Shown here: positions 12,577 through 50,755 of the stretch, piece by piece | How positions within the stretch are numbered: the first letter of the stretch is position 1 | How the letters are laid out: the number at the start of each line of letters is the position of its first letter | Translations under genes and position numbers: made by a program | DNA from: a virus | Lineage: Duplodnaviria; Heunggongvirae; Uroviricota; Caudoviricetes | Virus record (IMG/VR): IMGVR_UViG_3300037400_004417 | Strand: one strand, 5' to 3' | DNA length: 64,000 nt | Notes under the pieces: generated by a model | Database searches by the model: none | What the model was told of the DNA's origin: nothing | The model's input: the letters and a program-made list of their open reading frames with translations, nothing else

Positions 12577-12939
12577 TCATTCATGATAAGGTTCAAAATA
12601 TCTCCAGGCTTTTACATGTTCCATCTTTAGCATGCCGTTATTTCCATCTTTGACAAAGTTAGGATAAAAACAAGATGCTACTCTTTGTCCAATATAATAG
12701 CGACTACTTTTTCCTACATAGAAAACGGCTAATTTATATTCTTCAGGATAATCTTCTACAGACTGTATAGTTATCCAATCATTCATTTTTTTATTCATAT
12801 CCCCTTGCAAAAATTTTCTAAGCATTTGTCTCAACAGATATATTGTTTTTCCACATCGTCTTGGAATAATATACTTATACTTATTCCTTCTTACGCCTAA
12901 CTTCTTTAGAAGAAGAATATCTAACTTAATATCAATCAT
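12577..12939 (-). CDS. hypothetical protein
   Basis: 120-aa ORF. Confidence 0.4.
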   Translation of the reverse strand: MIDIKLDILLLKKLGVRRNKYKYIIPRRCGKTIYLLRQMLRKFLQGDMNKKMNDWITIQSVEDYPEEYKLAVFYVGKSSRYYIGQRVASCFYPNFVKDGNNGMLKMEHVKAWRYFEPYHE

Positions 12940-13858
12940 TGTTCTTGTATCTCTTTACTTTAGCCTTATAATTGCCATCTTCTCTTCTATGACAATGAGG
13001 ACATTCGTTAGCTATTATACCGGTATAACCACAGATAGGATCGTAATCTACAGGATGATTTATACTAATATAACCCATATCTGCTTCTACCATATTTTTA
13101 ATAAGCTTTTCAAACGCTGGTAAATTCTGCAATGGATCTCCAGGGAATTCAATATAAGCTATATTACCGGCATCCGTTTCACGATGATAAGGAGCTTCGA
13201 TTTCTATTTTATGTTTAGCGGAACATTCGTAATATGTTGGCACATGACTTCCATTCGTAAAATAATCTCTATCTGTTACTTTCTTTACGATTCCAAAATC
13301 TTTACGTGCAGCACGTAAGGATACTCCACAGAAATTTTCAGAAGGACTAGCAAAAGTACTCCAGTTCAAATGTGTTTCTTCAGTGAATTTTGTAGTCATA
13401 GCTCTTAAATGTTTTACGATTTTTAATCCTAATTTCTGAGCTTCCTCAGATTCTCCGTGATGTTTGCCTATCAAAGCTACTAAGCACTCTGCTAATCCTA
13501 CGAATCCAATACTTAAACTAGCATTTAGTAAAGCTGGTCTAATTTCATCCGTAAGTTTAAGTTTTTCGGAACCTTCATATAGACCTTGAGCAAATACAAA
13601 AGGATAATTATATACTTTTTTCTTAGCGATGATTTCAAAACGCCATTCTAAATATTTTTTACCCAAGTGAATATATTTGTTAAAAAGTTTAAAGAATTCA
13701 TCAATTAATTCCTTAGATTCAACAGTTTCATCTAAATCAATATTTAAATTTTTCTTAGCTTGTAAGGCTAAATACGGTAAATTAATAGTAGTAAACGCGA
13801 AATTGCCTCTAGATGCGGCATGTTCTGGCCCGTTTACGTTACTCATAACTCTTGTTCT
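12932..13858 (-). CDS. nrdD: anaerobic ribonucleoside-triphosphate reductase NrdD, exon 4 (C-terminal; glycyl-radical and Zn-ribbon)
   Basis: glycyl radical motif ICGYTG, C-terminal CPHCH Zn site; in-frame extension CRTRV upstream of the first Met; intron ends in G at 13859. Confidence 0.8.
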   Translation of the reverse strand, partial: RTRVMSNVNGPEHAASRGNFAFTTINLPYLALQAKKNLNIDLDETVESKELIDEFFKLFNKYIHLGKKYLEWRFEIIAKKKVYNYPFVFAQGLYEGSEKLKLTDEIRPALLNASLSIGFVGLAECLVALIGKHHGESEEAQKLGLKIVKHLRAMTTKFTEETHLNWSTFASPSENFCGVSLRAARKDFGIVKKVTDRDYFTNGSHVPTYYECSAKHKIEIEAPYHRETDAGNIAYIEFPGDPLQNLPAFEKLIKNMVEADMGYISINHPVDYDPICGYTGIIANECPHCHRREDGNYKAKVKRYKNND

Positions 13859-14092
13859 GCACTTTTATTAATAACTTGAATTTCTTCAAGGATCGGACTA
13901 TATCTTTATGCTATTAATAGCATATCTTCCATTTGGATATATAAATCTACGAGCGTAATAGCTCTAGTCTCTGAACCGAGTATTCTTTAAGAATACGATG
14001 GCTGCTGATTGTCGGCGTCGTCAAATTCTTTTATTGACAACACTACGATTTCCAGCAATTAGGAAGATTTTACATGAGCTGTAGAAAAGTTA
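13859..14092 (-). ncRNA. group I intron, nrdD intron 3 (family A, ORF-less)
   Basis: S-like cggactatatcttt (13905) and gctgctgattgtc (13998) on plus strand; exon 3 ends GGT (U), intron ends G; joins ...FAAAMG to CRTRV. Confidence 0.6.
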
Positions 14093-14378
14093 ACCCATGG
14101 CTGCTGCAAAGGTACGATAATCTCCTTCTTTATAGTAAGGAGCATTAAATGATGAAGACGTATTAAGAAAATTAGGGAATAAACGCTTCGCACTTACTTT
14201 GCAAGCATACTGGAATAAATCATAATTAGGATCTCCTTTTTCAAGATTTATTCCTTTATGGATTTGGAATACAGATATTGGGAAAATTGCAGGCTCTCCT
14301 TTTCCCAATCCATTCCATACTGCTTCTAATAAATACTTAGATACTAATCTACCTTCCGGAGAAGTATCCATTCCGAAA
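14093..14378 (-). CDS. nrdD: NrdD exon 3
   Basis: continues the NrdD reading frame; stop at 14090 lies just inside the intron. Confidence 0.6.
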
Positions 14379-15850
14379 TTAATAGAGCTAAATGGTCAGT
14401 AAGTTATTATCTCATGGTTTTTTATCCATGACTCTGGAAGTTTCCTTCATTTGAAGTTATCTCATTAACTAGTCAATTCTAGTTCAGCTTGGCGTACATT
14501 TTCATCCTATTATTAAATAGGAGTAAGACACTCTTGGTTATATTTTATTCTATAAAATAGTTTCAATAACTACGCTCTACGATGATATTGTTTTTTACGC
14601 AATATTTATCTCGGTATTGACATATCTGCTATTATATTCTTGTATAGCGGCCATAGCCTTTTCGTATTTTCTAAATAAATAAGTTGTAGAATCTGTATAT
14701 AAATAATTTATTAATGCAATAACATCTTTCTTAGATGACCATTTAACGGAGAATATTCCTTTTTCATAACTTGGTTTATTAAATGCGATGTTTAATTTGT
14801 TTGATAAATAATTTCTAATATCGTATATAATATTATCATGTCCACAAAATACAATGTGCCATGAAGGATTACGGTTAGTTAAAATTCGTCTATAAATACT
14901 TCCATCTCCATCGAAATATCCTCTTATAAAATGTTTATACATTTCTTCTTTTAATGTAGGAAAAAAACGATTAGGTTTATAATTAACCATTCCATGTCTT
15001 TCTAAATGTTCTACAAATTCATTATTTGTTACACTAATAGAAGATTCATTTTTTCTTTTGTCTATGACAATTTTTCTAGGTGCTTTTATTAAATCCTTTA
15101 TTTTCTTTATCATATAACTATCAGATTCTTGCAATTCAATTGTGAAAAGTTTACTATTATTTTTATATTTATTTATGAAAATACATCCATCGGCAATAAA
15201 TAACCCTAATAAATAAGCTTTTTCTTCACTATCTATTTTTTCAAAAAAGTTAGTTATTAAACTTCCTCTATTTAAATCTTGTCGATTATAAATGGAAATA
15301 TTATTTCTTTCTAAAACTTTTTTTGCCGTTAATTCACATATATGAAATTGTTTTGATAAGGCCTTTATTGACATAGGTTTTGTTAAATAAAAATTTATTA
15401 TCTTATTGTCGTCCAATATTTTTTTATTCATAATTATTTCACCTCCTTTTATCTAAAATAGCAGATTTAGTTTTTACCGACATTGTCTTATTTAAAAAAT
15501 ACATTACTGTATTCTCAGGCTACCATGTTAACCTGCGAACCGGCTCTACTATGACCTAACTACCCTCGGTTTCCCGATATTTATTAGGGGAGTAGACTAT
15601 CTTTTCATTTCTTGTGAAATGTCTCATCTTTTGAATAATAATATTATTCTACTTCCATATTGGAATAGTCGTTACACTTTGCTTTATTATCAAAAAACAA
15701 AGCACGGTATTTGCAGCTATCCTTTTTTATTAAAAGGACCTTAGCGTCTCTTACGGAGCTGATTCGAGCACAATGCCTTATTTAACTCCTACCGTTAGCC
15801 TTAATTATTTATTAAGACACCCTATATTTATAGGTTAATGAGATTTTCCG
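14379..15850 (-). mobile_element. group I intron, nrdD intron 2 (family D), carrying a LAGLIDADG HEG
   Basis: core 15690-15840 is near-identical to the core of the UvrD-helicase intron at 26790-26940; boundaries approximate. Confidence 0.55.
14595..15431 (-). CDS. double-motif LAGLIDADG homing endonuclease with N-terminal HTH
   Basis: YLLGLFIADGCIF and IRGYFDGDGSIY motifs; 278 aa. Confidence 0.8.
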   Translation of the reverse strand: MNKKILDDNKIINFYLTKPMSIKALSKQFHICELTAKKVLERNNISIYNRQDLNRGSLITNFFEKIDSEEKAYLLGLFIADGCIFINKYKNNSKLFTIELQESDSYMIKKIKDLIKAPRKIVIDKRKNESSISVTNNEFVEHLERHGMVNYKPNRFFPTLKEEMYKHFIRGYFDGDGSIYRRILTNRNPSWHIVFCGHDNIIYDIRNYLSNKLNIAFNKPSYEKGIFSVKWSSKKDVIALINYLYTDSTTYLFRKYEKAMAAIQEYNSRYVNTEINIA

Positions 15851-16440
15851 TCTTTATGCGGCCCCTACACAGTAAGGGAATTAAAATTGAAAACTAGTGC
15901 TTCCATTGCCTGTTTCGTTTCTTCTTCTACGTTTTGACAGGCAATATTATAAATAATTTCTCCATAACTTCGTTTATCAAAGTTATTCCTTGGAATTGTA
16001 AAATATGGTCCGATTCCGATAAGTCCTAAAATTTCGACCATATTTTTCCTGTCTTCCTCTTTATCTTTATATTTTATACGAGATAATATTTCTTCACCAT
16101 CTTCTTTATCTATATATAAACGACAGGAATGTTCTCCATTTGTTATTTTACATAAATTGATAAGCGCTTTTTTTAAATATTTCTGAAAACTTATATGAAC
16201 ATATTTTCCTAAAGCGAAATCAAATCCTACTAAACTTTGACCACCGAAGCAATCATTCTGTGCACTTTGTATTAAAATACATGCTAGAGATGCTGCTGCT
16301 CTGATAGACTTAGGAGGGCGTATAAAACCATGTCCAGTATTAAATCCATGTTTTAATGCCTTGCCTAAGTCAGAGTACAGGCAGTTAATCGTGATAAGAG
16401 AAAAATCCGCATCCGACCAATCGTCTTTTAGCAGACGATT
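15851..16440 (-). CDS. nrdD: NrdD exon 2 (no ATG, so absent from the ORF track)
   Basis: minus-strand translation reads ...DDWSDADFSLITINCLY...CFGGQSLVGFDFALGKY..., a NrdD core motif. Confidence 0.7.
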
Positions 16441-16694
16441 GGTCTGACTATATCATCATCTGTATGTTTGCTATTAAAATACAGATGCTAGGCACTTCAT
16501 ATATAGAATACTACTTGGTTATCACCAATAGTCGATTGACGGTCTATATTGTAAATAATAGTTTCGCACAGGATAACGTCGTAATAACGCTTCCCCTGTT
16601 AGCCTATCTTCTAATCATCATTTTCTATGATTCCTAAACGTAAGACAGACACCCCAGATTTCTGGGTTCACCTAGTTTTTCCATCGTAACTCAC
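16441..16694 (-). ncRNA. group I intron, nrdD intron 1 (family C, ORF-less)
   Basis: S ctgactatatca (16442) and R tagtcgattgac (16535) on plus strand; almost identical to the 5-prime gyrA intron. Confidence 0.55.
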
Positions 16695-17233
16695 GCTACG
16701 AGGCCACAATGCAACTTATGGATATGCTGGATATGTTTCTTATGCATTTCGCGGAATTCTTCAGGAAGAACATAATTATTAAGATACATCTTCGCATTTT
16801 CTGTTCCAAGCTTTAGCATGATTCCCATCGGAGCATCAGTGTTAATATTGGCATTGTCTCTTTTGAGGTCCATCTCCTCTGAATCAGCGAATAATAAATC
16901 ATGATTAAGCTTCATAAGATTTTCGGCAGCGTCTCTCTGCATCCTATGTCTTTCACGATATAAGATATACTTTTTAGCTGTTACGGGGAACATCTTACTT
17001 AGAGTACGTTCTACGATATCCTGGATTTCTTCTACGTTAATAGAATACTGCACTTCTTCATCGATGCTTAAAATTTCTTCTGAAATCTTACTGCTTATGT
17101 ATTCTATATCTTTCTCGTTCATTTCAGGAGACTCATCATATTCCAGATCATTATTAGCTTTAGTAATAGCTATCTTAATTCTTTCTGGATCGAAGTTTAT
17201 AATGTCTCCATTACGTTTTTCAACAGCAATCAA
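16695..17233 (-). CDS. nrdD: NrdD exon 1 (ATP-cone N-terminus)
   Basis: MIAVEKRNGDIINFDPERIKIAI is ATP-cone-like. Confidence 0.7.
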
Positions 17234-17240
17234 TTTAACT

Positions 17241-20304: not shown

Positions 20305-21373
20305 CTATTCGCAGTCTTCTAAACCTTCTCCTCTTACAATCTGATTATCATATTTTTCTTTTTTATTGATAATTTTCATAGCTATTTCATCATAAGATCC
20401 ATTAGCTATTAGCTGATATACATGAGCAGTATCACTTACGCTATCTGCTCGCTGTATTCTTCCATGTCTTTGAGTCTGTATAGCATAGCTGTTAGCTAAG
20501 TCCATTTCGATAAGATAGGAACACCAACCAAGAGAAATACCTTCAGCGCCGGCGTCTGATAATAGCAATATCTTACATTCAGGATTATCTCTAAATTTTA
20601 TAACATTGGCATATCTTTCATCACCGCTAAGAGAGCCATTTACAAAAGCCAATTCCATATTGAACAAGCTATTTCTTTTGGCTTCTTTGATTATACGCTT
20701 TTCTATTATGTCTTGCATTTTCTTATACCGACTAAATATACAAACTTTTTCTTCGGAATCAATAATTTCTTCTAATAATTCTATTAATAAATCCATTTTT
20801 GGATCTGAAGGAGAATTAGTCATATATTTTTGAGCATGTTCAGAATCACTAAATATTAAAAGTTCTTCAGAATCTGCTAACTCTTGGGCGAATGTTTGCC
20901 TCATCATTATTCCTGCTTCTATCTGTAATAATTCTGGAGGTTTTTCTTTGAGTTGTTTGCCACCTGTTAATGCTTTTTCTTTTTCATGGAGTTCATCTAA
21001 TTCTGCCATAATCCGGTCGTTCATTTTTAGTTGTTTAGGATGTAAATCACAATATCTTTGAGTAACGACTAGTTTCGGTAATTGAGATGAAACTTCTTCC
21101 TTCGTTTTTATTATAGTATATGGACTTATCTTTTCATTGAGTTTCTTTTCATTCCTAGAACCAATTACCCTACCATAACCGCCCCACTTTAAGTATGTAT
21201 TATCAAACTGGGATTTCTTAGGAAAGATTTCAGGATTTATAAACTTAAAGATTCCAAACAAATCTCTAGGATCACGTTGCAATGGAGTAGCAGTAGCACC
21301 CACAGTCATTTTAACATCGTTAAATTCATATAATGATTTAGATCTTTTAGCTGAATCAGATTTTATGTATTGG
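20305..21373 (-). CDS. SNF2-family helicase, exon 2 (motifs III-VI)
   Basis: TVGATATPLQ (motif III), QTQRHGRIQR (motif VI); frame open upstream of the listed Met to about 21373. Confidence 0.65.
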
Positions 21374-21816
21374 CATTAATGTTATTTAATTTCATTTATT
21401 TTATAAAAAAATAAAATTAAATTTCCTATATTTAGGACTCTGATTTTCATCAGAAGTTCAGACTATATCTTCATCCTTATAAAAAAGGAGTCGAGCATTT
21501 CGATTTAAAGGACTTTCACCTACCTGATACCAGGCCCTACTCCTATTGGCATTTCAGCCCACAATGGGATAGTCGTTGAACCTTCTCCTTACTCCACAAG
21601 TGAAGGAGCTTGGCTGCTGATCGTCGATTTTTATTTGAATTTTAGGACTATATTTTTTTATAGCTTTTATTTCACCATGATTCATTTTATTGTTTCTTTC
21701 AGTCTTTCGACAACATTCGCACTTATTATTTCTAATTATGCTGTAGTACAATAAACTTTACGATGTCCCAGCAATTAACTCGATTTTTTCCTACACATTA
21801 CTGTATAGGGAGACCC
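21374..21816 (-). ncRNA. group I intron (family A, ORF-less) in the SNF2 helicase gene
   Basis: S cagactatatctt (21460), R gatagtcgttgaacc (21573), gctgctgat (21612) on plus strand; proposed junction DEIN|IQYIKSD with exon end U and intron end G. Confidence 0.55.
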
Positions 21817-22553
21817 ATATTAATCTCATCCGCTCCAATAAAATCTAATTTCATTTTATGTAATTTAGCTCTTACTTTATCATCATTAAGAGTTTCATAA
21901 TTACATATCATTAAATCTACATTTTCGAATTGTTTATTGAATGCTTCTTCATTTCTGCATTTAGAATAAGTATCTAATATCTTAGAACGATAATCTGTAA
22001 ATTTTGATACTTCTGCATTCCATTGAGCTTTTAAAGATGCTTTAACAACTATTAATCCAGGAGGGGTTATCTTTCCTAAATTAACGGAATCAGAGAATAT
22101 ACCTAGTAAGCAGGCTGTTTTGCCAGCTCCACAACCTGCGACGATAAGACATTTTTCATTATCTGTCGCGAATTTGATTATATCCTGTTGATATTTATAA
22201 GGTTTAAGTTTTAAACTTAATCCTGCAGATTCAGAATCAATTATTTTTTGGCTAGATCCAAAAATCTTATTGACTCTATTGTTATGAGCAGTAATTCTTT
22301 TTTCTGTTCTATCCTTTTTAGCAGGAAATACTTCGTCGTTTAATTTGATTAGCTTATTTAATGCATATTCAGATATAAGCCAATCTCCTGATTCTATGTC
22401 CATACAAGATTCAGATTTTCTATCTCCAATGATATACATAAATTTATCGAAGTATTTCATAGCTTTAGATGAACTAGAAATATTTACAGCGAATTTATTA
22501 TCTTTATTCTGAAGTTTACGATAATAAAACAATTCTTTCTTGATGACCTTCAT
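21817..22553 (-). CDS. SNF2-family helicase, exon 1 (Walker A and DExx)
   Basis: AGCGAGKTA Walker A, GADEIN motif II. Confidence 0.65.
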
Positions 22554-27645: not shown

Positions 27646-27977
27646 CCAATTGTTATTAACCTACGGCTTTTTATCCGTAGCTCTGGAGGTTATCCTCATT
27701 TTCATCGGTTAGTCTTTTCTAACCCAGTGTAGCGTACCTTTTGCATATAGCTTCTATATTTAATATAGAAGTAAAACTGTAAATATGGACCGGCCTCTTG
27801 GGAACATTATATCTTTTCAGTTCCTACGCGTTGCTCCTCATCTTACTTTGCAAGATGTTCGGTTCTGATTAGGTTTATAACCCTTCCAGCTTAATTCCGG
27901 CCTAATAATTCAGAAACTTCATACAGTCTTTGTTTCTGAACGGCAATATTTAATGTAATTCATTACATTACACAATT
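27646..27977 (-). ncRNA. group I intron (family B, ORF-less) inside the Walker A codons of the UvrD-like helicase
   Basis: exon 1 ends GPGSG (GGT) and exon 2 starts AAA ACT (KT); intron ends G at 27646; family-B core motifs at 27670-27700, 27775-27830, 27860-27900. Confidence 0.65.
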
Positions 27978-37747: not shown

Positions 37748-38113
37748 CACAATATTTATATTAGGGAATAGACTATATCTTTACCATATCTTATAGTTAA
37801 TATAAGACTTAGGCACTCTGCACTTCCATTTAAGGGATTCTCACCCATCCTGTAAACGCAGGACCGTACTCTTGTAGCTGATTTTCACAGCCCCTCGCGG
37901 GAGATAGTCGTTGAACCCTTTTTATGTATCCATAAAATTAGGAAGCTGATTGTCTTATGATAATGCATATATCACTTAGATTTTCCAGCATTTCACAGAG
38001 TTTCTTACCTTATTATTTCTAACAAGGATGGCTTCTATTTAAATAATAAAATTTTTTTCTTTTTTTAATAAATTGTTTGTTCTAAATTTTTATGCAATAT
38101 TTAAATAGATTTT
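37748..38113 (-). ncRNA. group I intron (family A, ORF-less) inside the recA Walker A codons
   Basis: exon 1 ends IEDSG (GGT, U), intron ends G at 37748, exon 2 starts AAA ACA (KT); S aatagactatatcttt (37775), R gagatagtcgttgaaccc (37900). Confidence 0.7.
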
Positions 38114-38374
38114 ACCACTATCTTCAATACCTGTAATAATAGAACATCTTCTTCTTGGAAAGCCTCCGCTTACTTTACCGCTAATAGCCTTATTTAAATC
38201 TGGGCAAGCGGTAGGAATATACTTAATAGAAAGTTTTTCTTCAATTTCAGGGTTCTTACCGATTCGCCCCATTATAGTCTTACCGAATTTCTTATTGACC
38301 TTGTCAGTGATTTTATCTAATAACAACATCTTTTCAGCCAAAGTCTTTTGTTTAATAGGTTCTAAACTTGCCAT
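38114..38374 (-). CDS. recA: RecA recombinase, exon 1
   Basis: KKFGKTIMGRIGKNPEIEEKLSIKYIPTACPDLNKAISGKVSGGFPRRRCSIITGIEDSG. Confidence 0.75.
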
Positions 38375-38961: not shown

Positions 38962-41106
38962 CTATACCTCCGCTTTTTCTTCTTCAATCTCGTCTTCCTG
39001 CATAGGAGCAGAACTTACACTAGCAATAATATCATCTTTTTGAAGATTAACTATTTTAGAACCAGTTGCTGTTCTACTCATTACTTTTATACTAGATGCT
39101 GGAATTCTTATAGTCATACCTAACTGTGTGACAACAAATATAGTTTTGTCGTCTTCAGCAATCAGTATAATATTAATGGCGCCAGTATTTTTAGTAGGCT
39201 TATAGTAAGAGACACCTTTGCTTCCTCGATTAGTAATTCTTATATCTTCAGCATTCATTCTCTTAGCTATACCTTTGTCAGTAACGATAAGAAGCTGATC
39301 TTTGTTATTAGCTTTTAATACAGATACTACATAATCAGAATCATCTTTAAACTTAATTCCTGTTACTCCAGCTGCCGCACGCCCCATTAATCTTATATTA
39401 GATACAGGAGTTCTCACGGCAAAACCATTATTTGTAGCCAATAATACGATATCATTATCTTCTACTAAAGTACAGCCAATAATACTATCATCATCTTTAA
39501 TATTTATGACTTTAGCTCCAGATTTTGTAGAAGGCAAATCTTTAACAGAAAGTCTCTTACATAAACCTTTCTTTGAAGCGAAGAATAAAGTAACATTATC
39601 ATCATTTTCCTTAATCGGAACAATATTAATGATTTTTTCACTTTCTTCTAAAGAAACATAGTTTTGAACATATTTGCCAACAGATTTCTTTGATACAATA
39701 GGTATCTGATATGCCGGCAAAATATAAGCCTTACCTATATTAGTAATAAAGACCAAATTATCATGATTAGTTAAAGATATAATATTCTCAACAAAATCAT
39801 CATCTACTAACTTAGAAGATACTCCCTTGCCATTTTTCTTCTGAGCATTATATTCATTAGTTTTAACAGCTTTAATGATCCCTTTATGAGTAATCATTAT
39901 CATGATATCTTCTTTGGCAATATAATCTTTATCTGTTAAGGAATTTGTAGTCTCGCAAGATATCTCAGTAAGTCGTTCTTCCTTTTCGAATTTTACGGCA
40001 ACTTCATTTAATCTCAACTTTGTTTCATTAAGAAGCTCGAAATCATCATTAAGAATATTCGTTAAGTGTTGTATTTCTTTTGTAAGATTATTTATTTCTT
40101 CATTATATTCATCTATACTAATTTTCTTTAATGTTCTAATTTGTCTAGATAATATCGCAGAAGTTTGTTCTTCGTCTAAAGAATATAAGTCGTTAAATTT
40201 AGACACTATTTCTTCATCGCTATTTGCTTCTTTTATAATGTCTATAACTTCATTAATATTTGGAGTGATTATAGCAAAACCTTCCAAAATATGTAATCTC
40301 TTCTGTTTTCGCGGCAAATCATATTTTATTTTATTCCTTATAATTTCAATAGAATGCTCTAAGAATATTTCTAATAATTCTTTTAAAGTTAAATGTTCTC
40401 TAATTTTACCTTTAACCAAAGCTTGATGATTCATAGAAACAGTTGTCGCCATTTCTGTATCTTTTAATAATTTATTAATGGTAAGTTCAGTATTCACATT
40501 TTTCTTTAAATCTATAACTACCCTTATTCCATCTCGATCAGATTCGTCTCTTACTTCTTTTATGTCTGGAATAATATTATCTTTTCTAAGTTCATCTATT
40601 TTAGATACTAATCTAGATTTTATAACGCCAAAAGGAATTTCTGTAATAATAATACTTTCATTTCCCTTTTTGTCTATTTCTGTATGATACTTAGAACGAA
40701 TCTTTACAGATCCTTTTCCTTCTTTATATCCTTGATGAATCTCTTTTAATGATGTTATAATACCACCAGTAGGAAAATCTGGAGCTTTTATTATATCGAT
40801 TAATTCATCGTCTGTATATTCTTCTCCCTCTAATGTCTTATCTATTATATGATTAACAGCTTTGTAAACATCTTTAGCCATATGAGGAACAAAAGACGTC
40901 CCCATACCTACTGCTATACCACTTACGTAAGAACATAAGAGATTAGGGAATAATCCACTAAGGACAACAGTTTCTTTTTCTGATTCATCATAATTAGGTA
41001 CGAAATCTACAGTACCTTTATCTAAATCCGTCAGCATTAAATCGCCATATACTGATAATCTTCCTTCCGTATATCGCATCGCCGCCGGAGGGTCACCATC
41101 TAAATT
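38962..41106 (-). CDS. gyrA: DNA gyrase/topoisomerase IV subunit A, exon 3
   Basis: NLDGDPPAAMRYTEGRLS, VDFVPNYDESE, GIAVGMGTSF, C-terminal beta-pinwheel repeats (GRAAAGVTGIKF). Confidence 0.8.
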   Translation of the reverse strand, partial: NLDGDPPAAMRYTEGRLSVYGDLMLTDLDKGTVDFVPNYDESEKETVVLSGLFPNLLCSYVSGIAVGMGTSFVPHMAKDVYKAVNHIIDKTLEGEEYTDDELIDIIKAPDFPTGGIITSLKEIHQGYKEGKGSVKIRSKYHTEIDKKGNESIIITEIPFGVIKSRLVSKIDELRKDNIIPDIKEVRDESDRDGIRVVIDLKKNVNTELTINKLLKDTEMATTVSMNHQALVKGKIREHLTLKELLEIFLEHSIEIIRNKIKYDLPRKQKRLHILEGFAIITPNINEVIDIIKEANSDEEIVSKFNDLYSLDEEQTSAILSRQIRTLKKISIDEYNEEINNLTKEIQHLTNILNDDFELLNETKLRLNEVAVKFEKEERLTEISCETTNSLTDKDYIAKEDIMIMITHKGIIKAVKTNEYNAQKKNGKGVSSKLVDDDFVENIISLTNHDNLVFITNIGKAYILPAYQIPIVSKKSVGKYVQNYVSLEESEKIINIVPIKENDDNVTLFFASKKGLCKRLSVKDLPSTKSGAKVINIKDDDSIIGCTLVEDNDIVLLATNNGFAVRTPVSNIRLMGRAAAGVTGIKFKDDSDYVVSVLKANNKDQLLIVTDKGIAKRMNAEDIRITNRGSKGVSYYKPTKNTGAINIILIAEDDKTIFVVTQLGMTIRIPASSIKVMSRTATGSKIVNLQKDDIIASVSSAPMQEDEIEEEKAEV

Positions 41107-42237
41107 CATTTTGTTAATCGTTAAGTTTTTTATCTTAACTCTATATCTTGCGATACAGATCAGCATATATTTTTACGTATTTTTATCATTACTTCAAACG
41201 TAATCCGGTCTCTTGGTAGAATTATATCTTTTCATCTACTATGCGTTGCCCCTGAATATACTTAGTATATCCTTCGGTTCGCGTTTTCCTTGTTCAGGAT
41301 TTTCACGTTTAATACCAGATTAATAATCTAATTTCTTCATGAAGTTTTTGAAACTAGACGGCAAAAATTTAAATATCTATTGTATTTTCTGTCTAAATAA
41401 ATAGTAGCATCAGAATACATAAAATTTAATGCTTTTAAGATTTCTTGTTTTGCTGATATTCTGTATATGTATACATTTTTTCTAAATTTTACTTTGTAAG
41501 TAGTTTTTACACCAGCTAAACGTTCAAAGATATCTTTTATGTATTCCAATATATCTTTCCCCATGCCAAAACCTATTTCTCTATAATTATAGCCATAAGT
41601 TATCCATCCATCTCCATCAAAAATACCCCTTATATAATGATGAATAAGGTGTTCTGGAATTTGTTTTGCTGGCCTTTCGTTTAAAGTTTTAACACTGGAA
41701 AATCCTAAATTTATCAGGGCTTGATGTAAATGTTTATTAGTAATAGTTAATGTACTAACTAAAGCGGTATCACTATATCCACCACTTTTTCTGATTTCAA
41801 TCGGATGTTCAGATTCAATCGATTTTTTAAACTTTTCAACATGATTATGATCTGAATGCATAAGACTTAATCTAATTCCATTGCTCGATTTAAAAATACA
41901 ACCATCTGCGGTTAATAAACCAAGCCAATATGCTTTTTCTTCAGTGTCTATTACATCAAAGTAATTTTCATTTACATCATATATTCCCCGGATTTCATAT
42001 CTATTGTATTCTTTTAAATATTTGGCTAAAGTATCTCTTGATACTCCTAAATCTTTAGCACATTGGGTAATGCTTAGATCTTTATGTTGAGAAAAGTAAT
42101 TTACTGCATCTTCCCAAAATTTTTCGAGCATTTTTTGTTTGTTTAACATTTAAGAACACTTCTTTCTGTGGAAATAGTATACTTAAATTATTACCAAACA
42201 GCTTTAATGCTTTATACATAGATGTTTAAATTTGTTT
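41107..42237 (-). mobile_element. group I intron, gyrA intron 2 (family B-like core), carrying a LAGLIDADG HEG
   Basis: micro-exon ends ...QGNHG (GGT, U) at 42238; intron ends G at 41107; family-B motifs ccggtctcttggtagaattatatcttttca (41205) and ccttcggttcgcg (41270). Confidence 0.6.
41337..42149 (-). CDS. double-motif LAGLIDADG homing endonuclease with N-terminal HTH
   Basis: YWLGLLTADGCIF and YIRGIFDGDGWI. Confidence 0.8.
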   Translation of the reverse strand: MLNKQKMLEKFWEDAVNYFSQHKDLSITQCAKDLGVSRDTLAKYLKEYNRYEIRGIYDVNENYFDVIDTEEKAYWLGLLTADGCIFKSSNGIRLSLMHSDHNHVEKFKKSIESEHPIEIRKSGGYSDTALVSTLTITNKHLHQALINLGFSSVKTLNERPAKQIPEHLIHHYIRGIFDGDGWITYGYNYREIGFGMGKDILEYIKDIFERLAGVKTTYKVKFRKNVYIYRISAKQEILKALNFMYSDATIYLDRKYNRYLNFCRLVSKTS

Positions 42238-42333
42238 ACCATGGTTTCCCTGCATATCTACTAATGGATATCTTTGTTTAAAATCCTGAGACATATTTAC
42301 CATTGCTTCATATACTGATTGATCTCCATGAGG
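42238..42333 (-). CDS. gyrA: gyrA micro-exon (32 codons: [32 protein letters not shown])
   Basis: supplies the conserved PHGDSAVYD..RY.LVDGQGNFG block missing between the flanking exons; absent from the ORF track. Confidence 0.65.
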
Positions 42334-42635
42334 CAATTATATTACAAATATAATCTGACTATATCATCATCTTTGTTTTATACCAAAGAGCTAGGCGCTT
42401 CATGACAAGGAAATTCACCTTATTCATTACACTCTTATTTGAGTTAGTCGATTGACCTACTATTATATATAATAGATTGGCACAGGATAAAGCTAATTCA
42501 ACTGTCCCCTGTTAGCACTATCATTATATGTCATTTCCTACATACACAATTAATCGTTGATAGCACACCTTACATAATTATAAGTTCACCTAGTTTTCAT
42601 TATGATTCTCATCATAATGCCACCCGATTTCACAA
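42334..42635 (-). ncRNA. group I intron, gyrA intron 1 (family C, ORF-less)
   Basis: exon 1 ends ...GRYH (CAT, U) at 42636; intron ends G at 42334; S ctgactatatca (42357), R tagtcgattgac (42440); about 85% similar to nrdD intron 1. Confidence 0.65.
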
Positions 42636-42866
42636 ATGGTATCGCCCGAGGCATTCACCTACTGTTCTTGCACTCTTTTTATATGAAGTATTAGCATGTA
42701 GTCCTAATCCATTTAAAGACTGAAGTATTCTTCTCTGCACTGGTTTTAAACCATCTTCTGCAGCTGGAATGGCTCTTCCTTCAATTACGTCTTTTGCATA
42801 CAATAAATAATTCGTATACATATGTTCCGCAAAAGAAACTTCTTCTATATTTTTAACTTCGTTCAT
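42636..42866 (-). CDS. gyrA: DNA gyrase subunit A, exon 1
   Basis: [11 protein letters not shown]...[15 protein letters not shown]. Confidence 0.75.
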
Positions 42867-43632: not shown

Positions 43633-43797
43633 TCATAAATTTTGAAGAATATATTCTCTTCTTGCTTCTACATTATTACTCATACAAATTTCTAAAGCAT
43701 TTGCGGCGCTTTCACAATCATCTATCGTGATTCTCTTTAATCTGGCAATTTCAGGATTCATGGTTGTCTCCCAAAGCTGTTCAGGATTCATTTCTCC
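43633..43797 (-). CDS. gyrB: DNA gyrase subunit B, exon 4 (C-terminus)
   Basis: minus-strand translation (L)GEMNPEQLWETTMNPEIARLKRITIDD...; no ATG, so absent from the ORF track. Confidence 0.7.
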   Translation of the reverse strand, partial: GEMNPEQLWETTMNPEIARLKRITIDDCESAANALEICMSNNVEARREYILQNL

Positions 43798-44058
43798 TAC
43801 ATGTTTTTTCTTATGTTACCATAAGCACTGACTATTTCTTCGTTGAATATTTCAACGTTATCTTTTTCCCAATGCGTATCAATAGCATCAGTACTTCCCG
43901 ACAAAGGGAATAGTCGATACAGGATTAAGTATTTTTTACTTTTTCCCACGAGACATTCCTAAAAATATTTAGGACGGCCCTCGTTAGCTATATTAATGGT
44001 AATTATTAATATAACCCCGCTGATAAACGGAAAAGATAATAAGGGCTCGGATTCTCTA
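43798..44058 (-). ncRNA. group I intron, gyrB intron 3 (short, ORF-less)
   Basis: exon 3 ends KG + T (U), intron ends G at 43798; together these restore RYKGLGEMNPEQLW; R/S-like ggaatagtcgatac and cactgactatttc. Confidence 0.55.
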
Positions 44059-44275
44059 ACCCTTTATAGCGACTTACGCTATAACCATTCGTATCAAAAG
44101 CGTCCAATTCTTCTTTTGTATATAAATAATGTACTTCTTCTTTGTTTTTACTTATCTTCCTTGATACTTTAAATAGTGGTGGACAAGCCGCATATAAATA
44201 TCCAGCTTCTATAATAGGTCTCATATAATGATAAAAGAACGACATATGTAAGCAAGCAATATGCCCGCCATCAAC
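44059..44275 (-). CDS. gyrB: DNA gyrase subunit B, exon 3
   Basis: VDGGHIACLHMSFFYHYMRPIIEAGYLYAACPPLFKV...RYKG. Confidence 0.75.
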
Positions 44276-45446
44276 CGATTATACCCTTGCTTTTGCAATA
44301 TTTAAAAATTCATCATATATTTCTTTTTTTCTATCTAAATAAATGGTTGCATCTAAATACATAATGTTTAAAATTTTATATAATTGAATATTTCCTCCAA
44401 TATGTAATTCAAATGCATTATTATGAGGTACGATTTTTAAATTGTTTTTATTGAAATAACTAGATATACCTTTTAACATATCTTTAGTTCCAGTAAAACC
44501 CAAACAATATTTTTTTTGGTTATTGTAATTGTAATATGATAAAGATCCATCACCATCAAAATATCCTCGAATAAAATGATGTATTAAATCTTTCGGAACA
44601 ATATTGTCTGTTGGAAAATTTAATAAATATGTTTTGTGTTCGGCAACACCTTTATCTTTTAAATCATTTACAGTTTTGCTACTTGTTAACAGTATTTTTG
44701 CGAACATATTTTCTTTTGCAAATCCACTACCTTTATATATTTTAATAGGATTTGTAGCTTCAATATCTTTTTTAAATTTATATAAATGATTTATCTCTGA
44801 ATGTTTTAAAGTTATACCTATTTTTTGATTTGAATTTTCTCTTTTTGATTCAATAAAACCATCAGCATATAAAAATCCTAACCAATAAGCTTTATGCTCT
44901 GTATTTATTGTTTCAAAAAAAGATTCATTATGAAAATATTTTCTAGAATTTATAGAATTATTTCTAATTGTGATATTATGTTCTTTTAAAATATTCGATA
45001 GAGTTTTTCTATCATGATTGTATTTCTTTTCTAAAGAACGTAAAGATATGTTATTTTCATAATCAACAATTAAATTTTGCAATTCATTTATTGATAGATT
45101 TAATTTTTTTGCCATAAATACCATTCCTTTGTTATATATTTATATATTTATTACTACAAAGTAAATGATATTTATACAAATGGCGTAAATATATTTAATG
45201 TATAGGGTCTAGATCATATCTTCACCATATTTTTATATTGTCATAAAAACTTAGGTTGCTCCACTTCCTTCTTAAAATATATTATTTAGAAGTAAGTCCG
45301 AATGGACTGATCGTTGAACCTTCTTTATTTATTATAAAGATTGGCTGCGAATTGTCCATTTAATTTAAATAATAAAAAATGGATATCCTCGCAATTCAGA
45401 GCTCTTTAAATTATATCTTTCGATATAATACGACTGTTAAAATTCA
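44276..45446 (-). mobile_element. group I intron, gyrB intron 2 (family A), with a LAGLIDADG HEG whose stop lies 3 nt from the 3-prime splice site
   Basis: exon 2 ends ...MNDAD (GAT, U) at 45447; intron ends G at 44276; S ctagatcatatcttca (45215), R gactgatcgttgaacc (45307), ggctgcgaattgtcc (45343). Confidence 0.7.
44279..45124 (-). CDS. double-motif LAGLIDADG homing endonuclease with N-terminal HTH
   Basis: YWLGFLYADGFI and FIRGYFDGDGSLS. Confidence 0.8.
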   Translation of the reverse strand: MVFMAKKLNLSINELQNLIVDYENNISLRSLEKKYNHDRKTLSNILKEHNITIRNNSINSRKYFHNESFFETINTEHKAYWLGFLYADGFIESKRENSNQKIGITLKHSEINHLYKFKKDIEATNPIKIYKGSGFAKENMFAKILLTSSKTVNDLKDKGVAEHKTYLLNFPTDNIVPKDLIHHFIRGYFDGDGSLSYYNYNNQKKYCLGFTGTKDMLKGISSYFNKNNLKIVPHNNAFELHIGGNIQLYKILNIMYLDATIYLDRKKEIYDEFLNIAKARV

Positions 45447-46646
45447 ATCTGCATCGTTCATTAATATTATCTTATGATATCTTAATTTATCTAAATTAAA
45501 TTCTTCGCCTATCCCACACTTTAAAGCCTTTACTAAATCCATAATTTTTGGGCTTTTTAAAATTTTATCTAAGGTAGTTTTAGTAGAGTTTAAACCTTTA
45601 CCAAAAAATGGCAAGATTGCTTGAGTTCTTCTATCTCTTCCACCTTTAGCACTACCTCCTGCAGAATCGCCCTCTACTATAAATAGCATACATTCTTCGG
45701 GATTTTTAGAGCTACAGTCTGCTAATCCTTCTACGTGTCCACTATCTATAGCTTTAACACCTCTAGCGGTATCACGTGCTTTTCTAGCTGCTTCTCTAGC
45801 TTTTGCAGCCTTTAAAACTTTTTCAATAATTAAAGTACTTCTATTTTTATCTTGAGATAAGAAATCATATATATATTCTTCTATAGCCTCTTTTACGGAA
45901 GAATATATGTTTTTCATTCTAAGACGGCCTTTTCCCTGTCCTTCAAAAACAGGGTCCTTTAATTTAACAGAGACTATAGCTGTTAAACCTTCCTGACAAT
46001 CATCACTCGTGATTTGGCTAGCTTCTTTGATATGATTATATTCTAAAGCATATTTTCTAATTGCGTTAAATAATCCTGCTTTAAACCCTGTCTCATGATC
46101 GCCACCATAAATAGTGATTACATCATTAACGAAAGATTTAATATTAGGAGAAAATGTTTCAATATAAGACATAGCTATATCTATATCGACATTTCTCTCT
46201 ATATTCTCATTATTAAACTTTATAGTATACTGAGACGTCTTAGAGAAACTAATAGGTTCCAGTATCGGTGTTTTATTTGCGATAGATTCTTTTACATATC
46301 CAATTAATCCCTCCGGATAACAATAAGATTCATCTATCTTTACCGGCTTATTATCCTTATCTACAGAATCTACATAATAATTTAAAGTTAACCCTGGATT
46401 TAAATAGGCTAATCTTTTTATATGTTTATTTAATTCGATAAAATCGAACCATTCATCTTGCCATATATCTGAATCAGGGATAAAATGTATTTCTGTTCCC
46501 GTTACATCTTTCTCTATCTGTTCTCCTGTTTCATATAAAGGCTTCGTTAATAATCCTTTAGAATATTCAATAGCATATTCTTTTCCATTAGTTCTAACTA
46601 CTGCTTTAAAGAAATCAGATGTAGCATTTACACAACTTATACCTAC
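45447..46646 (-). CDS. gyrB: DNA gyrase subunit B, exon 2 (transducer and Toprim)
   Basis: VGISCVNATS..., EGDSAGGSAKGGRDRRTQAILP, KLRYHKIILMNDAD. Confidence 0.8.
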
Positions 46647-46902
46647 CATTTATGTTCGATTAAGGTCGCTAATCTTAATCCGTTCTCCTACGAACTGCTT
46701 TATGTTTCCATAAAGATCAGACTATATCTTTTTCGATTTTTCTTGAAAGTTTCTGTTTCCATTCGCTTGAATGTACGGCTTATTGCCTAGTCGTTGAACT
46801 CTATTATATAATATCAGCTGCTGATTGTCCTTATATTATAATATAAGGGGATTCCAGCATTTAAGAAACTTTTACAACGGCATATTTTTTTTATGCGGTT
46901 TT
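46647..46902 (-). ncRNA. group I intron, gyrB intron 1 (family A, ORF-less)
   Basis: exon 1 ends ...SGLNG (GGT, U) at 46903; intron ends G at 46647; exon 2 starts VGISCVNA, restoring GLNGVGISCVNA; S cagactatatcttt (46715), R gcctagtcgttgaac (46790), gctgctgattgtcc (46817). Confidence 0.7.
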
Positions 46903-47238
46903 ACCGTTTAAACCTGAAGTATTTGTTGTGTATCCATCTTGTGATGAAAACTTGCCACCTGCATGTAAAGAGCCTATTGCAAGCTCAATTTGACGTTTAT
47001 CTTCATATCCTGGAGTTTTAGAATATCCAATAGGGATACCGCCGCCATTATCTTCTACGATAACTTCTTTATCTATGATAGCGGTGGTTATGATAGAACA
47101 TCTCCCGGCGCTCGCTTCATCTCTAGAATTATCTAAAGCCTCATTAATACAATGATCAATAGAAGGGAGATACATTCCTCTTCTCATTCTAACATTGTCT
47201 GGAAAATCTAATACGCTTATTTGTGCTTGTTCCGCCAT
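46903..47238 (-). CDS. gyrB: DNA gyrase subunit B, exon 1 (GHKL ATPase N-terminus)
   Basis: VRMRRGMYLPS...EALDNSRDEA...VEDNGGGIP...LHAGGKF. Confidence 0.8.
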
Positions 47239-49029: not shown

Positions 49030-49068
49030 ATTTTCTATTCTCCTATTTACTTAATTAGTTATTTTTCT

Positions 49069-49874
49069 TTATCCAACAGCTAATTCGTCAAAGTTATCTT
49101 TAACGATTATTTCATTAGTGTTTGGATCTACATCTACTATAATCTCTTTACTGCCTTTAAAATCTGGCATTTTATACATCGTATCCATTAAGATATTTTC
49201 AACGATACCTCTAAGAGATCTTGCTCCTGTCTTCATCTCAATGGCTTTATTGGCAATTTTTCTTAAAGCTTCATCAGTAAAAGTTAAAGTAGCAGCATTA
49301 GCTCTAAAAATATTCTTATACTGCTTTACCAATGAGTTCTTTGGTTCAGTTAAAATCTTAGTTAAAGCTTCTTCAGATAGAGTTTGTAAGGAACATATTA
49401 CAGGGAATCTACCTAATAACTCCGGCAACATACCATATTTACGTAGGTCTTCGGCTTTAATATCCAAAATTAAATCGTTAAAAGCCTTTTCTTCGTCTAA
49501 CTGTATTGTCGTACCAAAACCCAAGGTAGAACCAGATGTTTTCTTCTGTCTCTTAGCGATAATCTTCTCAATACCTTCAAATGCTCCGCCTACAATAAAT
49601 AATACATTTTCAGTATTGAACTTAAAGGTTTCTGCATTCGGATGATGTCTTTGTCCTTTTGCGGCTACTTCTACTACTGTTCCCTCTACGAACTTCAATA
49701 ATCCCTGCTGTAAATCTTCATGACTAGGATCTGCAGAAGTAGAAGCGCTCTCTCCTTTTCTAGAACACTTATCTATTTCGTCAATGTAAACAATACCACG
49801 TTCTGCCTTAGAAATGTCTCCATTAGCAGCATTCACTAGGTCTTTTAAAATTGACTCGAGGTCTCGACCTACAA
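49069..49874 (-). CDS. clpX: ClpX ATP-dependent protease ATPase subunit, exon 2
   Basis: VGRDLESILKDLVNAANGDISKAERGIVYIDEIDK...GLLKFVEGT...; listed start is GTG within the exon. Confidence 0.8.
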
Positions 49875-50262
49875 CTAATTATTTTTATCTTGCGATTTTT
49901 TATTCGCAACTCTGGAGATTGCTCTCATTTTCATCGATTAGTTATTTCCAATCCAGTATAGCATACCTTTTTATATAGTCTTTAATAAAATCATTAAAGA
50001 TTCAACTACAAATATAAAGCGGCCTCTTGGGAGTATTATATCTTTTCAACTCCTATGCGTTGCCCCTGGTTAAACGAATTATTATTTTACGTTTATCATT
50101 AATTTCCGGCATTATCCTTTATATAATTTAGCTACTTAAATTTGTAGCACCTTCGGTTCTGATTAGGTTGTATTTAACCCTTCCAGCTTAATTCCGCTTT
50201 TATAATCTATGGCTTTCTTGTAGTCTTTAACCATAGACGGCTATTTGTTTTTCAAATAAATA
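49875..50262 (-). ncRNA. group I intron (family B, ORF-less) in clpX
   Basis: exon 1 ends ...SSTG + TT (U) at 50263; intron ends G at 49875; the join restores TGFVGRD (ClpX AGYVGED); family-B motifs at 49895, 50010, 50150. Confidence 0.7.
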
Positions 50263-50755
50263 ACCCAGTCGAACTAAAACTCGTTATGTCCTCTATTACG
50301 AATGGTAAACCCAATGCTTGTGCTAATCTTTTTATTAATAAAGTTTTACCAGAGCCAGTTGAACCAACCATTAAGATATTGCTCTTTTCAATATCGTCGC
50401 TTCCTTCGATACCCATTTTCTTCATTCTTAATCTTAAGAAATGGTTATATATAGCGACAGCAATTGTCTTCTTTGCATTTTCCTGTCCGATTACGTAATT
50501 ATCAAGATATTCTTTTAACCCTGCAGGAGTTTGCTTTATCTCGTTAGTGCCTGCTGAAATGGTTTCATTCTCCTTCTTTGTTTCTTCTACGACTGCGATA
50601 TGTTTAAAACCAGAATATACATTTGTCGCACAATTAAAACATAAGCAGTTTCCAGTTAACCCTTGTACTAAAAAATTAGAGGTATTTTCTTCTGCGGAAA
50701 TAGGTTTACCGCAAAACAAACATTTAGTATCGTTTGTAATAATATTTTTATTCAT
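50263..50755 (-). CDS. clpX: ClpX, exon 1 (zinc-binding N-domain, Walker A)
   Basis: CLFCGKP...CFNC zinc finger; LKEYLDNYVIGQENAKKTIAVAIYNHF; ILMVGSTGSGKTLL. Confidence 0.8.

Follow-up and report, generated by a model that had tools for sequence, protein, structure and literature searches.

Eight replication and recombination genes in 23 pieces

The window analysed here is the whole 64-kb stretch of DNA (64,000 nucleotides) from the virus record IMGVR_UViG_3300037400_004417, and this work concerns a 38-kb range within it (positions 12932-50755) in which we predict 15 group I introns that divide eight genes into 23 pieces. The window has a G+C content of 31% and a GC skew that is negative throughout. 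In the part studied closely, about 10-53 kb, a single long open reading frame (ORF) is found on the plus strand and all others on the minus strand; tRNA genes are absent. The gene content comprises nrdD, two nrdG-like genes, HU, a SNF2 helicase, uvrD, an AAA ATPase, a Rad52-like gene, recA, gyrA, gyrB, SSB-like genes, clpX and clpP, and the 38-kb region, whose transcription runs from the minus strand, looks like the module for replication and recombination in an uncultured phage of low G+C content. The source is an uncultured phage or phage-like element. A megablast search with 24 kb against 50,697 INPHARED phage records found no phage relative, returning only 47-nt matches, and no close relative was found in IMG/VR, where the best GyrB identity was 50%. 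One protein of the window is present verbatim on a 24.5-kb contig in the Logan assembly of run SRR12668996.

Stop-to-stop translation confirmed that eight genes are split, as a first-pass annotation made from the sequence had claimed. Removal of the 15 segments in silico yields eight open frames with one terminal stop each, and every spliced frame matches its NCBIfam or Pfam profile in a single stretch that spans all of its junctions. Full-length profiles were used for NrdD, UvrD/PcrA, RecA, GyrA, GyrB and ClpX, and Pfam domains for the SNF2 and AAA proteins. The split genes, with the profile match of each spliced product, are as follows.

12932..17233, minus strand: nrdD (anaerobic ribonucleotide reductase), exons 17233-16718, 16413-15875, 15554-15531, 14396-14093 and 13861-12932; NF005497, residues 3-754 on profile positions 4-710 of 746, 832.2 bits (cut-off 764)
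20305..22553, minus strand: SNF2-family helicase, exons 22553-21823 and 21373-20305; Pfam SNF2-rel_dom, residues 131-371 on positions 16-252 of 290, junction at residue 244
24612..28106, minus strand: UvrD/PcrA-like helicase, exons 28106-27978, 27645-27001 and 25760-24612; TIGR01073 (pcrA), residues 16-636 on positions 2-635 of 725
28851..30808, minus strand: AAA+ ATPase, exons 30808-29738 and 29432-28851; Pfam AAA, residues 287-417 on positions 2-130 of 131, junction at residue 357
36692..38374, minus strand: recA, exons 38374-38114 and 37729-36692; TIGR02012, residues 19-356 on positions 6-316 of 321
38962..42866, minus strand: gyrA, exons 42866-42636, 42333-42238 (96 nt) and 41106-38962; NF004043, residues 7-807 on positions 2-796 of 798
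43633..47238, minus strand: gyrB, exons 47238-46903, 46646-45447, 44275-44059 and 43799-43633; NF004189, residues 4-638 on positions 12-632 of 641
49069..50755, minus strand: clpX, exons 50755-50263 and 49874-49069; NF003745, residues 9-415 on positions 5-398 of 418, 458.5 bits (cut-off 359)

Splice junctions and a 24-nt exon

Raw concatenations of the fragments were aligned to the solved structures of NrdD (PDB 8p23) and GyrB (PDB 6rks). In these alignments the translated gap sequence appeared as short insertions, and conserved motifs were broken exactly at the gaps. Reading of the boundary codons then gave, at every junction, a U before the intervening sequence and a G at its end; junctions of this kind, which the first-pass annotation had placed for ten introns only, can be placed for all 15. 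The total of 15 introns given by that annotation is likewise borne out, although its own gene list added up to 14, and nrdD proves to have four introns where three had been listed.

The revision of nrdD concerns the gap 14397-15874, which consists of two introns (2a and 2b below) and the following exon.

15531..15554, minus strand: nrdD micro-exon, T CAT AGT AGA GCC GGT TCG CAG GT, encoding (L)HSRAGSQ(V), 24 nt

In the NrdD alignment the residues HSRGGNQV of 8p23 lacked a counterpart, and a motif search located HSRAGSQV at these positions. Without the micro-exon the NF005497 score falls from 832.2 to 793.0 bits, a loss of 39 bits; skipping of this exon would keep the reading frame and remove HSRAGSQV. 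The boundaries of nrdD intron 1 were shifted by 9 nt and 6 nt after comparison with IMG/VR relatives: the junction KLH^DFSL (a caret marks the splice junction) was rejected, as four IMG/VR nrdD introns show the exon end ...IHFH^ and the guide GUGG, and with the junction HIQHIH^DADFSL the HIHD motif is whole again and the profile score climbs from 825.5 to 832.2.

Families of intervening sequences

The 15 intervening sequences are 231-1240 nt long, sum to 8,206 nt (21.7% of positions 12932-50755) and are spaced at about one per 2.5 kb. They are listed here with their family, splice junction and named helices (strands separated by a slash).

16414..16717, minus strand: nrdD intron 1, family C, 304 nt, HIQHIH^DADFSL; P3 CUAGGU/GCCUAG, P4 ACAGGG/UCCUGU, P7 GACUA/UAGUC
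15555..15874, minus strand: nrdD intron 2a, family D, 320 nt, NFNS(L)^HSRA; P1 CCCU/GGGG, P3 CUCAUU/GAUGAG, P4 ACGGU/ACCGU, P7 GACUA/UAGUC
14397..15530, minus strand: nrdD intron 2b, distant family B, 1134 nt, LAGLIDADG ORF between the P4 strands; P1 CAGGU/GCCUG, P3 AAGACA/UGUCUU, P7 GCGUA/UACGC (a variant also found in uvrD intron 1)
13862..14092, minus strand: nrdD intron 3, family A, 231 nt, AAAMG^CRTRV; P1 AUGGGU/GCUCAU
21374..21822, minus strand: SNF2 intron, family A, 449 nt, GADEI^QYIKS (motif II); P1 GAGAU/GUCUC, P3 UCGAGU/GCUCGA
27646..27977, minus strand: uvrD intron 1, family B, 332 nt, GPGSG^KT (Walker A); P1 AGUGGU/GCCGUU
25761..27000, minus strand: uvrD intron 2, family D, 1240 nt, DADQS^IYSFRGA (motif III), core in the first ~340 nt; P1 AGAGU/GCUCU, P3 CUCGGU/GCCGAG, P4 ACGGU/ACCGU, P7 GACUA/UAGUC
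29433..29737, minus strand: AAA ATPase intron, family B, 305 nt, EKAING^NTAAS; reference for the family B structure
37730..38113, minus strand: recA intron, family A, 384 nt, EDSG^KTSLV (Walker A); P1 GUGGU/GCCAU, P3 CUCUG/CAGAG
42334..42635, minus strand: gyrA intron 1, family C, 302 nt, GRYH^PHGD; P1 CCAU/GUGG
41107..42237, minus strand: gyrA intron 2, family B, 1131 nt, GNHG^NLDGD; P1 AUGGU/GCCGU
46647..46902, minus strand: gyrB intron 1, family A, 256 nt, GLNG^VGIS; P1 AACGGU/GCCGUU
44276..45446, minus strand: gyrB intron 2, family A-like, 1171 nt, NDAD^VDGGHI; P3 GCUCU/GGAGC, P7 GAUCA/UGAUC
43800..44058, minus strand: gyrB intron 3, C/D-like, 259 nt, RYKG(L)^GEMNPEQ; 6-bp P1 AAGGGU/GCCCUU, P3 GUUAU/AUAAC, P4 ACGAG/CUCGU, P7 GACUA/UAGUC
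49875..50262, minus strand: clpX intron, family B, 388 nt with a 61-nt insertion in P6, SSTG(F)^VGRD; P1 GGU/GCC with an intron-side extension UAUUU/AAAUA, read by eye

The first-pass annotation had sorted the introns into four families by recurrent sequence elements. We found all of these elements in the gaps that separate the gene fragments, exclusively on the minus strand, with the Q, R, family B and family C blocks correctly positioned. The core motifs are far in excess and occur on the coding strand only. The S element AAGATATAGTC has five minus-strand copies (13896, 21461, 37771 and 46720, and 57342 outside the range) against 0.11 expected from shuffles, and the R element GTTCAACGACT is exact at 21571, 37906 and 46789. 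Family B blocks lie at 27792-27875, 29608-29659, 41207-41252 and 50021-50169, and the family B motif GGCAACGCRTAG has three copies against none expected; family C blocks lie at 16444/16529 and 42355/42445. The family D core in the second nrdD interruption is 76% identical to uvrD intron 2 over 146 nt. An all-against-all blastn comparison of the gaps recovered the same four families. The grouping was essentially right; to it we add nrdD intron 2b, a distant member of family B, and gyrB intron 3, which is related to families C and D.

Group I architecture

The covariance-model search that had been proposed as a check returns group I matches for part of the set. With Rfam model RF00028 (Intron_gpI, gathering score 50 bits), four introns score at or above the gathering score (nrdD intron 3, 85.2 bits; SNF2 intron, 74.9 bits; recA intron, 64.1 bits when searched alone; gyrB intron 1, 61.7 bits) and gyrB intron 2 falls under it with 38 bits, but the other ten gave no match at E<=10 in searches of stretches of 3-6 kb. 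The sensitivity of this model depends on search length: the recA intron, which was not picked up in larger searches, and two ribozymes outside the 38-kb range were seen only at 416-701 nt. Because RF00028 is silent on ten introns, other evidence was needed for those ten.

The Rfam searches also bear on the proposal that the inserts are dealt with by some other means (protein splicing of inteins, group II introns or translational bypass), which we consider extremely improbable. Introns and inteins are mixed in crAss-like and Jug phages (PMC12880540), and intein-containing RecA and GyrA models occur among the weaker NCBIfam matches here, although these reflect the host protein only. An intein would have to be translated, yet the exon frames meet a stop within a few codons of the splice site, so that the inserts are unreadable. 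As for group II introns, the only Rfam families at the gathering score in the window are Intron_gpI and RAGATH-18, and the ORF listings contain, beyond four LAGLIDADG ORFs, no intron ORF long enough for a reverse transcriptase. Finally, lengths of 231-1240 nt far exceed known bypass gaps.

A script found complementary P3, P4 and P7 strands in all 15 sequences, ordered P3-P4-P4'-P7-P3'-P7' as the group I pseudoknot has them. The P3 helices are of 14 different kinds among the 15 introns, and cognate strands pair in 100% of cases against 39% for non-cognate ones.

For family B (uvrD intron 1, AAA intron, clpX intron and gyrA intron 2), the fold was derived from a nine-sequence MAFFT alignment that includes AR9, Goe21 and IMG/VR relatives. 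It comprises helices P2, P3, P4, P5, P6/P6a, P7, P7.1, P8, P9, P9.1 and P9.2. Pairing holds in 92.7% of alignment cells, against 30-48% with the partners slid, and the pseudoknot helices P3 and P7 are 100% paired. Forty of the 62 pairs change on both sides, and none of 500 shuffles reaches the observed values. The 3' domain of nrdD intron 2b resembles family B and AR9, a likeness judged partly by eye.

For family C (nrdD intron 1 and gyrA intron 1), RNAalifold run without manual input on both introns and a homologue from the IMG/VR phage contig L050 returned P2, P3, P4, P5, P6, P7.1 and P8, with 29 of 72 pairs compensatory. (Labels such as L050 denote comparison loci; L001 is AR9, KU878088, and the others named here are IMG/VR phage contigs.) The nrdD intron 1 site and its internal guide sequence GUGG are common to the nrdD genes of L050, L042, L067 and L072. 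Families C and D (the latter nrdD intron 2a and uvrD intron 2) and gyrB intron 3 share the layout GC-UAA-C-P4, P7 GACUA, P7.1, GUA, P7.2, P3', P8 and UAGUC, which is an IA2-like arrangement of the core. Two hairpins split by GUA between P7 and P3', an arrangement read partly by eye that would fit subgroup IA2, recur in families A, C and D and in gyrB intron 3, whereas family B has a single hairpin (P7.1) at that place. Among IMG/VR relatives of families C and D, P3 runs, as followed by eye, through seven complementary versions: CUAGGU/GCCUAG, CUCGGU/GCCGAG, CUCAUU/GAUGAG, GUUGGU/GCCAAC, ACUGGU/GCCAGU, GGCGUU/AACGCC and GAUGCU/AGCAUC. Two other pairings were tried for this helix, a bipartite P3 (GGC/GCC plus CUA/UAG) and a P3 drawn from GGUGUC; both fail in nrdD intron 2a, L030 and L035, whereas the CUAGGU-type pairing covaries.

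After the 5' strand of P3 and ahead of J3/4, a place that is empty in canonical group I introns, the C/D introns of the window carry two additional hairpins flanked by GAAC and GGUGUC.

16600-16675, minus strand: extra hairpins of nrdD intron 1
42510-42590, minus strand: extra hairpins of gyrA intron 1
15790-15840, minus strand: extra hairpins of nrdD intron 2a
26900-26960, minus strand: extra hairpins of uvrD intron 2

The hairpins are kept in IMG/VR relatives (L030, L032, L035, L043 and L050). They may explain why RF00028 misses these introns, and the C/D class could be an undescribed structural subclass.

Endonuclease genes and insertion sites

Four of the 15 introns contain LAGLIDADG ORFs, recognised by the Pfam matches given below, and eleven are ORF-less.

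14595..15431, minus strand: LAGLIDADG ORF of nrdD intron 2b, 278 aa; LAGLIDADG_3 3.7e-9, LAGLIDADG_1 4e-6
25855..26748, plus strand: LAGLIDADG ORF of uvrD intron 2, 297 aa; LAGLIDADG_3 6.5e-9
41337..42149, minus strand: LAGLIDADG ORF of gyrA intron 2, 270 aa; LAGLIDADG_3 6.3e-10
44279..45124, minus strand: LAGLIDADG ORF of gyrB intron 2, 281 aa; LAGLIDADG_3 3.2e-5

Their placement differs from intron to intron: between the P4 strands in nrdD intron 2b, between the 5' splice site and the internal guide sequence in gyrA intron 2, and downstream of P7 in gyrB intron 2 and uvrD intron 2. The stop codon of the gyrB intron 2 ORF stands 3 nt ahead of the 3' splice site (44276-44281, minus strand), so that the 3' terminal ribozyme elements must overlap coding sequence. 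The uvrD intron 2 ORF is antisense to its intron and to all neighbours, and is the sole plus-strand long domain-bearing ORF between 10 and 53 kb; it would need its own promoter, and its transcript would complement the intron RNA.

The insertion sites are conserved motifs, among them Walker A, helicase motifs II and III, the Toprim DxD, YHPHGD and the NrdD SRxGxQ loop. Sites in the most conserved motifs of an enzyme are what is expected of homing-endonuclease targets. We also observed that recA and uvrD are cut at an identical 12-nt Walker A sequence, AGTGGT^AAAACT (38109-38120 and 27973-27984, minus strand). The intron at this sequence belongs to family A in recA and to family B in uvrD, and both guide sequences fit GUGGU.

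Both intron-less and same-site-interrupted homologues exist. The gyrB gene is uninterrupted over all three junctions in eight IMG/VR homologues (L005, L008-L014), and fifteen others share one or both of two interruption sites with the window, residue 512 (DAD^VDG) and approximately residue 585 (KGL^GEM). The gyrB intron 2 site is interrupted in the phage contigs L006, L007, L024, L035 and L037, and homologues of gyrB intron 3 with a GIY-YIG-like ORF in P6 lie at the identical site in L003, L004 and L006; comparison with these shows, by eye, compensatory changes in P7.1, P7.2 and P9. Intron-borne endonuclease ORFs and intron-less gyrB alleles are both found, as mobile introns would have them, with the endonucleases predicted from their domain matches. 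The two gyrB sites recur in many unrelated phage contigs (L003, L004, L006, L007, L015-L024, L035 and L037). The introns at these sites vary in family, and some contain an endonuclease gene while others do not; in L035 the site of the family A-like gyrB intron of the window is taken by one of family D.

These homologues also bear on whether a metagenomic assembler could have stitched repeated intron-like sequence into intact genes. The window does come from a short-read metagenome assembly (Logan SRR12668996), and members of an intron family share blocks of 45-300 nt at 70-90% identity. The copies are nevertheless far from identical and would therefore not collapse or chimerise, every insertion is bounded to the nucleotide by a restored codon, and the guide sequences differ, each fitting its own exon. 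In addition, the same protein occurs on two independently read contigs, and unrelated phages have introns at the same sites. We therefore regard an assembly artefact as very improbable.

Proposed splicing pathway and points on both sides

If the interruptions are functional group I introns, each would fold within the pre-mRNA into a P3-P9 and P4-P6 core, and the last 3-7 nt of the 5' exon would pair with the internal guide sequence, so that the splice site is marked by a U-G wobble. Free guanosine would then cut the 5' splice site, and the terminal G of the intron would complete exon ligation to give the mRNA of an intact enzyme, each intron splicing alone or with help. As to origin, homing endonucleases may have targeted the invariant DNA of catalytic motifs, and the four LAGLIDADG genes, if active, would spread the introns through double-strand-break repair at co-infection. 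In uvrD intron 2, a UAUAU read by eye could pair with AUAUA of the 3' exon as a possible P10.

Several points weigh against this interpretation. The case for splicing is built from DNA sequence, and the ten introns that RF00028 passes over lack a match to the standard model. A P1 of 3-7 bp with U-G at the splice site can be drawn in all 15, and guide regions pair with their own exon over a mean of 5.0 bp against 4.3 for the guide regions of other introns; in a comparison that also covered random octamers, however, a 4-bp helix with a U-G end arose by chance in 67% of trials, and the P1 lengths overall at 36-67%. Helices of this size being too common by chance, P1 was dropped as evidence. Helix names in families C and D, gyrB intron 3 and nrdD intron 2b were assigned by visual inspection, also for the P4 strands of nrdD intron 2b, which are just 4 nt long, and a joint MAFFT alignment of families C and D misaligned the variable hairpins and was too poor for pair counts. 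The extra C/D hairpins match no described subgroup that we could name. In uvrD intron 2, some 930 nt, mostly antisense ORF, separate P7 from the 3' splice site, and the exon-side P1 of gyrB intron 2 has just 3 bp.

Some or many of the interruptions might instead be decayed intron remnants or endonuclease cassettes, and the genes pseudogenes or separately expressed fragments, on the model of the split genes that some T4-like phages express as fragments. The ten introns unrecognised by RF00028 and the antisense ORF and very distant 3' splice site of uvrD intron 2 fit such a view, and precedents point the same way: splicing reads were obtained for 37 of 76 predicted Jug-phage introns and for one nrdD gap not at all (PMC12880540), and of nine Bastillevirinae genes that were tested in vitro, four showed no self-splicing (PMC11878797). 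All 15 junctions, however, restore frame and conserved motif to the nucleotide, which decay would not keep, and the ribozyme helices stay paired through compensatory changes. Furthermore, most fragments lack a start codon and ribosome-binding context of their own, and no functional protein could come from pieces of 8 or 32 codons. Decay on this scale seems to us quite unlikely.

The group I interpretation, which the first-pass annotation had put forward, is supported by the restored frames, the RF00028 matches, the core helices and the homology of family B to AR9. We are confident that the region holds 15 group I introns of several IA-like classes in eight genes, which would be removed by splicing.

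Ribozymes outside the 38-kb range and candidate genes related to nrdD

With two further examples outside the range, the whole 64-kb window contains 17 group I ribozymes. The first divides a small gene.

2800-3506, minus strand: small gene, split by a group I ribozyme
2925-3279, minus strand: group I ribozyme, RF00028 48.8 bits, just sub-threshold

The spliced product of this gene ends in ...KFDRIRRITG(Y)KDLTGTVDRWNNAKRAELKDR, which is the NrdD glycyl-radical tail (PDB 8p23 residues 704-736). The main nrdD, 10 kb away, is without the last ~36 profile positions, and since the tail is absent there and present in the small gene, the radical domain seems to be separately encoded. For this glycyl-radical gene (~2900-3240), the join RITG^YKDL gives the best protein fit (23.0 bits) and needs splice ends other than U and G; joins that obey the U...G rule score lower, at 15.7-19.7 bits. 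A 92-aa ORF directly upstream of nrdD may, on sequence reading alone, be an ATP-cone domain, and two radical-SAM ORFs resemble NrdG activases, the first with Pfam Fer4_12 and a weak Radical_SAM match and the second judged by sequence reading.

17241-17519: 92-aa ORF, candidate ATP-cone domain
31699-32364, minus strand: radical-SAM ORF resembling NrdG
52954-53478, minus strand: radical-SAM ORF resembling NrdG

The second ribozyme belongs to an IStron-like composite on the minus strand (~55200-57770).

57320-57600, minus strand: group I ribozyme of the IStron-like element, RF00028 49.5 bits, exact S element
57252-56527, minus strand: MerR+Resolvase (IS607-type serine recombinase) ORF, downstream of the ribozyme
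56570-55350, minus strand: TnpB ORF of the IStron-like element
55226-55287, minus strand: RAGATH-18 RNA, 66.4 bits, possibly a guide-RNA scaffold

Implications

If the introns splice, this would be the densest group I array that we have found described for a phage (15 in 38 kb). It would provide a test bed for how many self-splicing steps an essential pathway can tolerate, for how a 24-nt exon is handled by the two ribozymes that flank it, and for how different intron families come to occupy the same 12-nt P-loop sequence of two genes. Standard gene callers combined with a single Rfam model overlook most such introns, and without the logic of exon restoration the replication genes of uncultured phages are mis-annotated as fragments.

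Because the eight enzymes would need 15 guanosine-dependent splicing events, one could imagine the module as a splicing-gated regulon that ties phage DNA synthesis to host GTP, Mg2+ or translation state, with the endonucleases also serving to attack related phages that co-infect the cell, so that the crowding would be more than parasitism. In phage PhiPA3, an intron endonuclease has been shown to be such a weapon (PMC11620839). For the present module we consider this idea speculative and unlikely.

Comparison with known systems

The gyrA introns of AR9, PBS1 and vB_BsuM-Goe21 belong to the same RNA family as family B of the window, with 68-86% identity over 77-240 nt; the AAA intron, for example, shares 68% of 240 nt with the interruption in Goe21 gyrA and 84% of 77 nt with AR9 gyrA. 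AR9 and family B have in common the P3-P9.2 architecture, the GCCGU guide and the CCA(A/C)GAG and AUAAAAA(A/G) loops. The AR9 gyrA gene (KU878088, AR9_g044) is annotated as a three-piece join in which, as in the window, two introns flank a short exon around YHPHGD...GNFG. The AR9 introns (2377-2644 and ~2825-3098) lie, by eye, three to four codons off the sites of the window, and closely related ribozymes have thus settled at neighbouring, non-identical gyrA sites. Both AR9 gyrA introns are of family B, whereas in the window only intron 2 is and intron 1 belongs to family C. The window also has family B introns in uvrD, the AAA ATPase, clpX and nrdD, gyrA being the one AR9 gene compared.

A second point of comparison is provided by the IA2 introns of phages, found in T4 td, nrdB and nrdD/sunY, Twort orf142 and nrdE, and the DNA polymerase genes of SPO1 and Bastille. 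They are like those of the window in having P7.1/P7.2 between P7 and P3', a GACUA/UAGUC P7 and a UAA J3/4, and in interrupting genes of nucleotide metabolism and replication with several introns per gene; the C/D introns of the window are set apart by the pair of hairpins that follows the P3 5' strand and precedes J3/4. Enzymes of the GIY-YIG or HNH type predominate in the introns of T4, Twort and Bastille, whereas the predicted endonucleases of the window are of the LAGLIDADG type. IA2-bearing genomes have a few introns per 130-170 kb, as against 15 in 38 kb here. More than 200 Herelleviridae genomes contain interruptions whose 3' ends match the last 47 nt of nrdD intron 2a at 94-98% identity. 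Both small exons and the skipping of exons have been reported for phage IA2 introns (PMC11878797, PMC3984707). In the Bastillevirinae 37 genes hold 45 introns, among them a pair that encloses a small exon (PMC11878797), and Twort is cited in that paper for three introns in one gene and exon skipping.

Intron-rich phages have also been described among uncultured lineages. Multiple self-splicing introns occur in crAss-like phages (PMC7886860), and a Jug phage genome of 360-402 kb contains 18.5 group I introns on average, its nrdD being divided into four (PMC12880540). Among these phages splicing has been confirmed for part of the introns by metatranscriptome reads (PMC12880540; PMC7886860). Like the window, they are uncultured and have split essential genes, theirs including terL, DNA polymerase and nrdD. 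Jug phages have about one intron per 20 kb, mostly of ~206 nt, and mainly free-standing HNH genes, whereas the window has one per 2.5 kb, of 231-1240 nt, with intron-borne LAGLIDADG genes. The "extreme density" claimed by the first-pass annotation therefore holds for phages, yet in view of the Jug-phage average it is a matter of degree: the local intron density of the window is well above published phage figures.

A comparable density is found outside phages. The cox1 and cob genes of fungal mitochondria contain many LAGLIDADG-bearing group I introns per gene and micro-exons, with lengths from a few nucleotides to a few tens; these are organellar, and their splicing is often maturase-dependent. 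The window differs in being a phage genome in which the crowding extends over eight genes. Intron-rich phages being already published, the array is an extreme case of a known type of element, packed unusually tightly.

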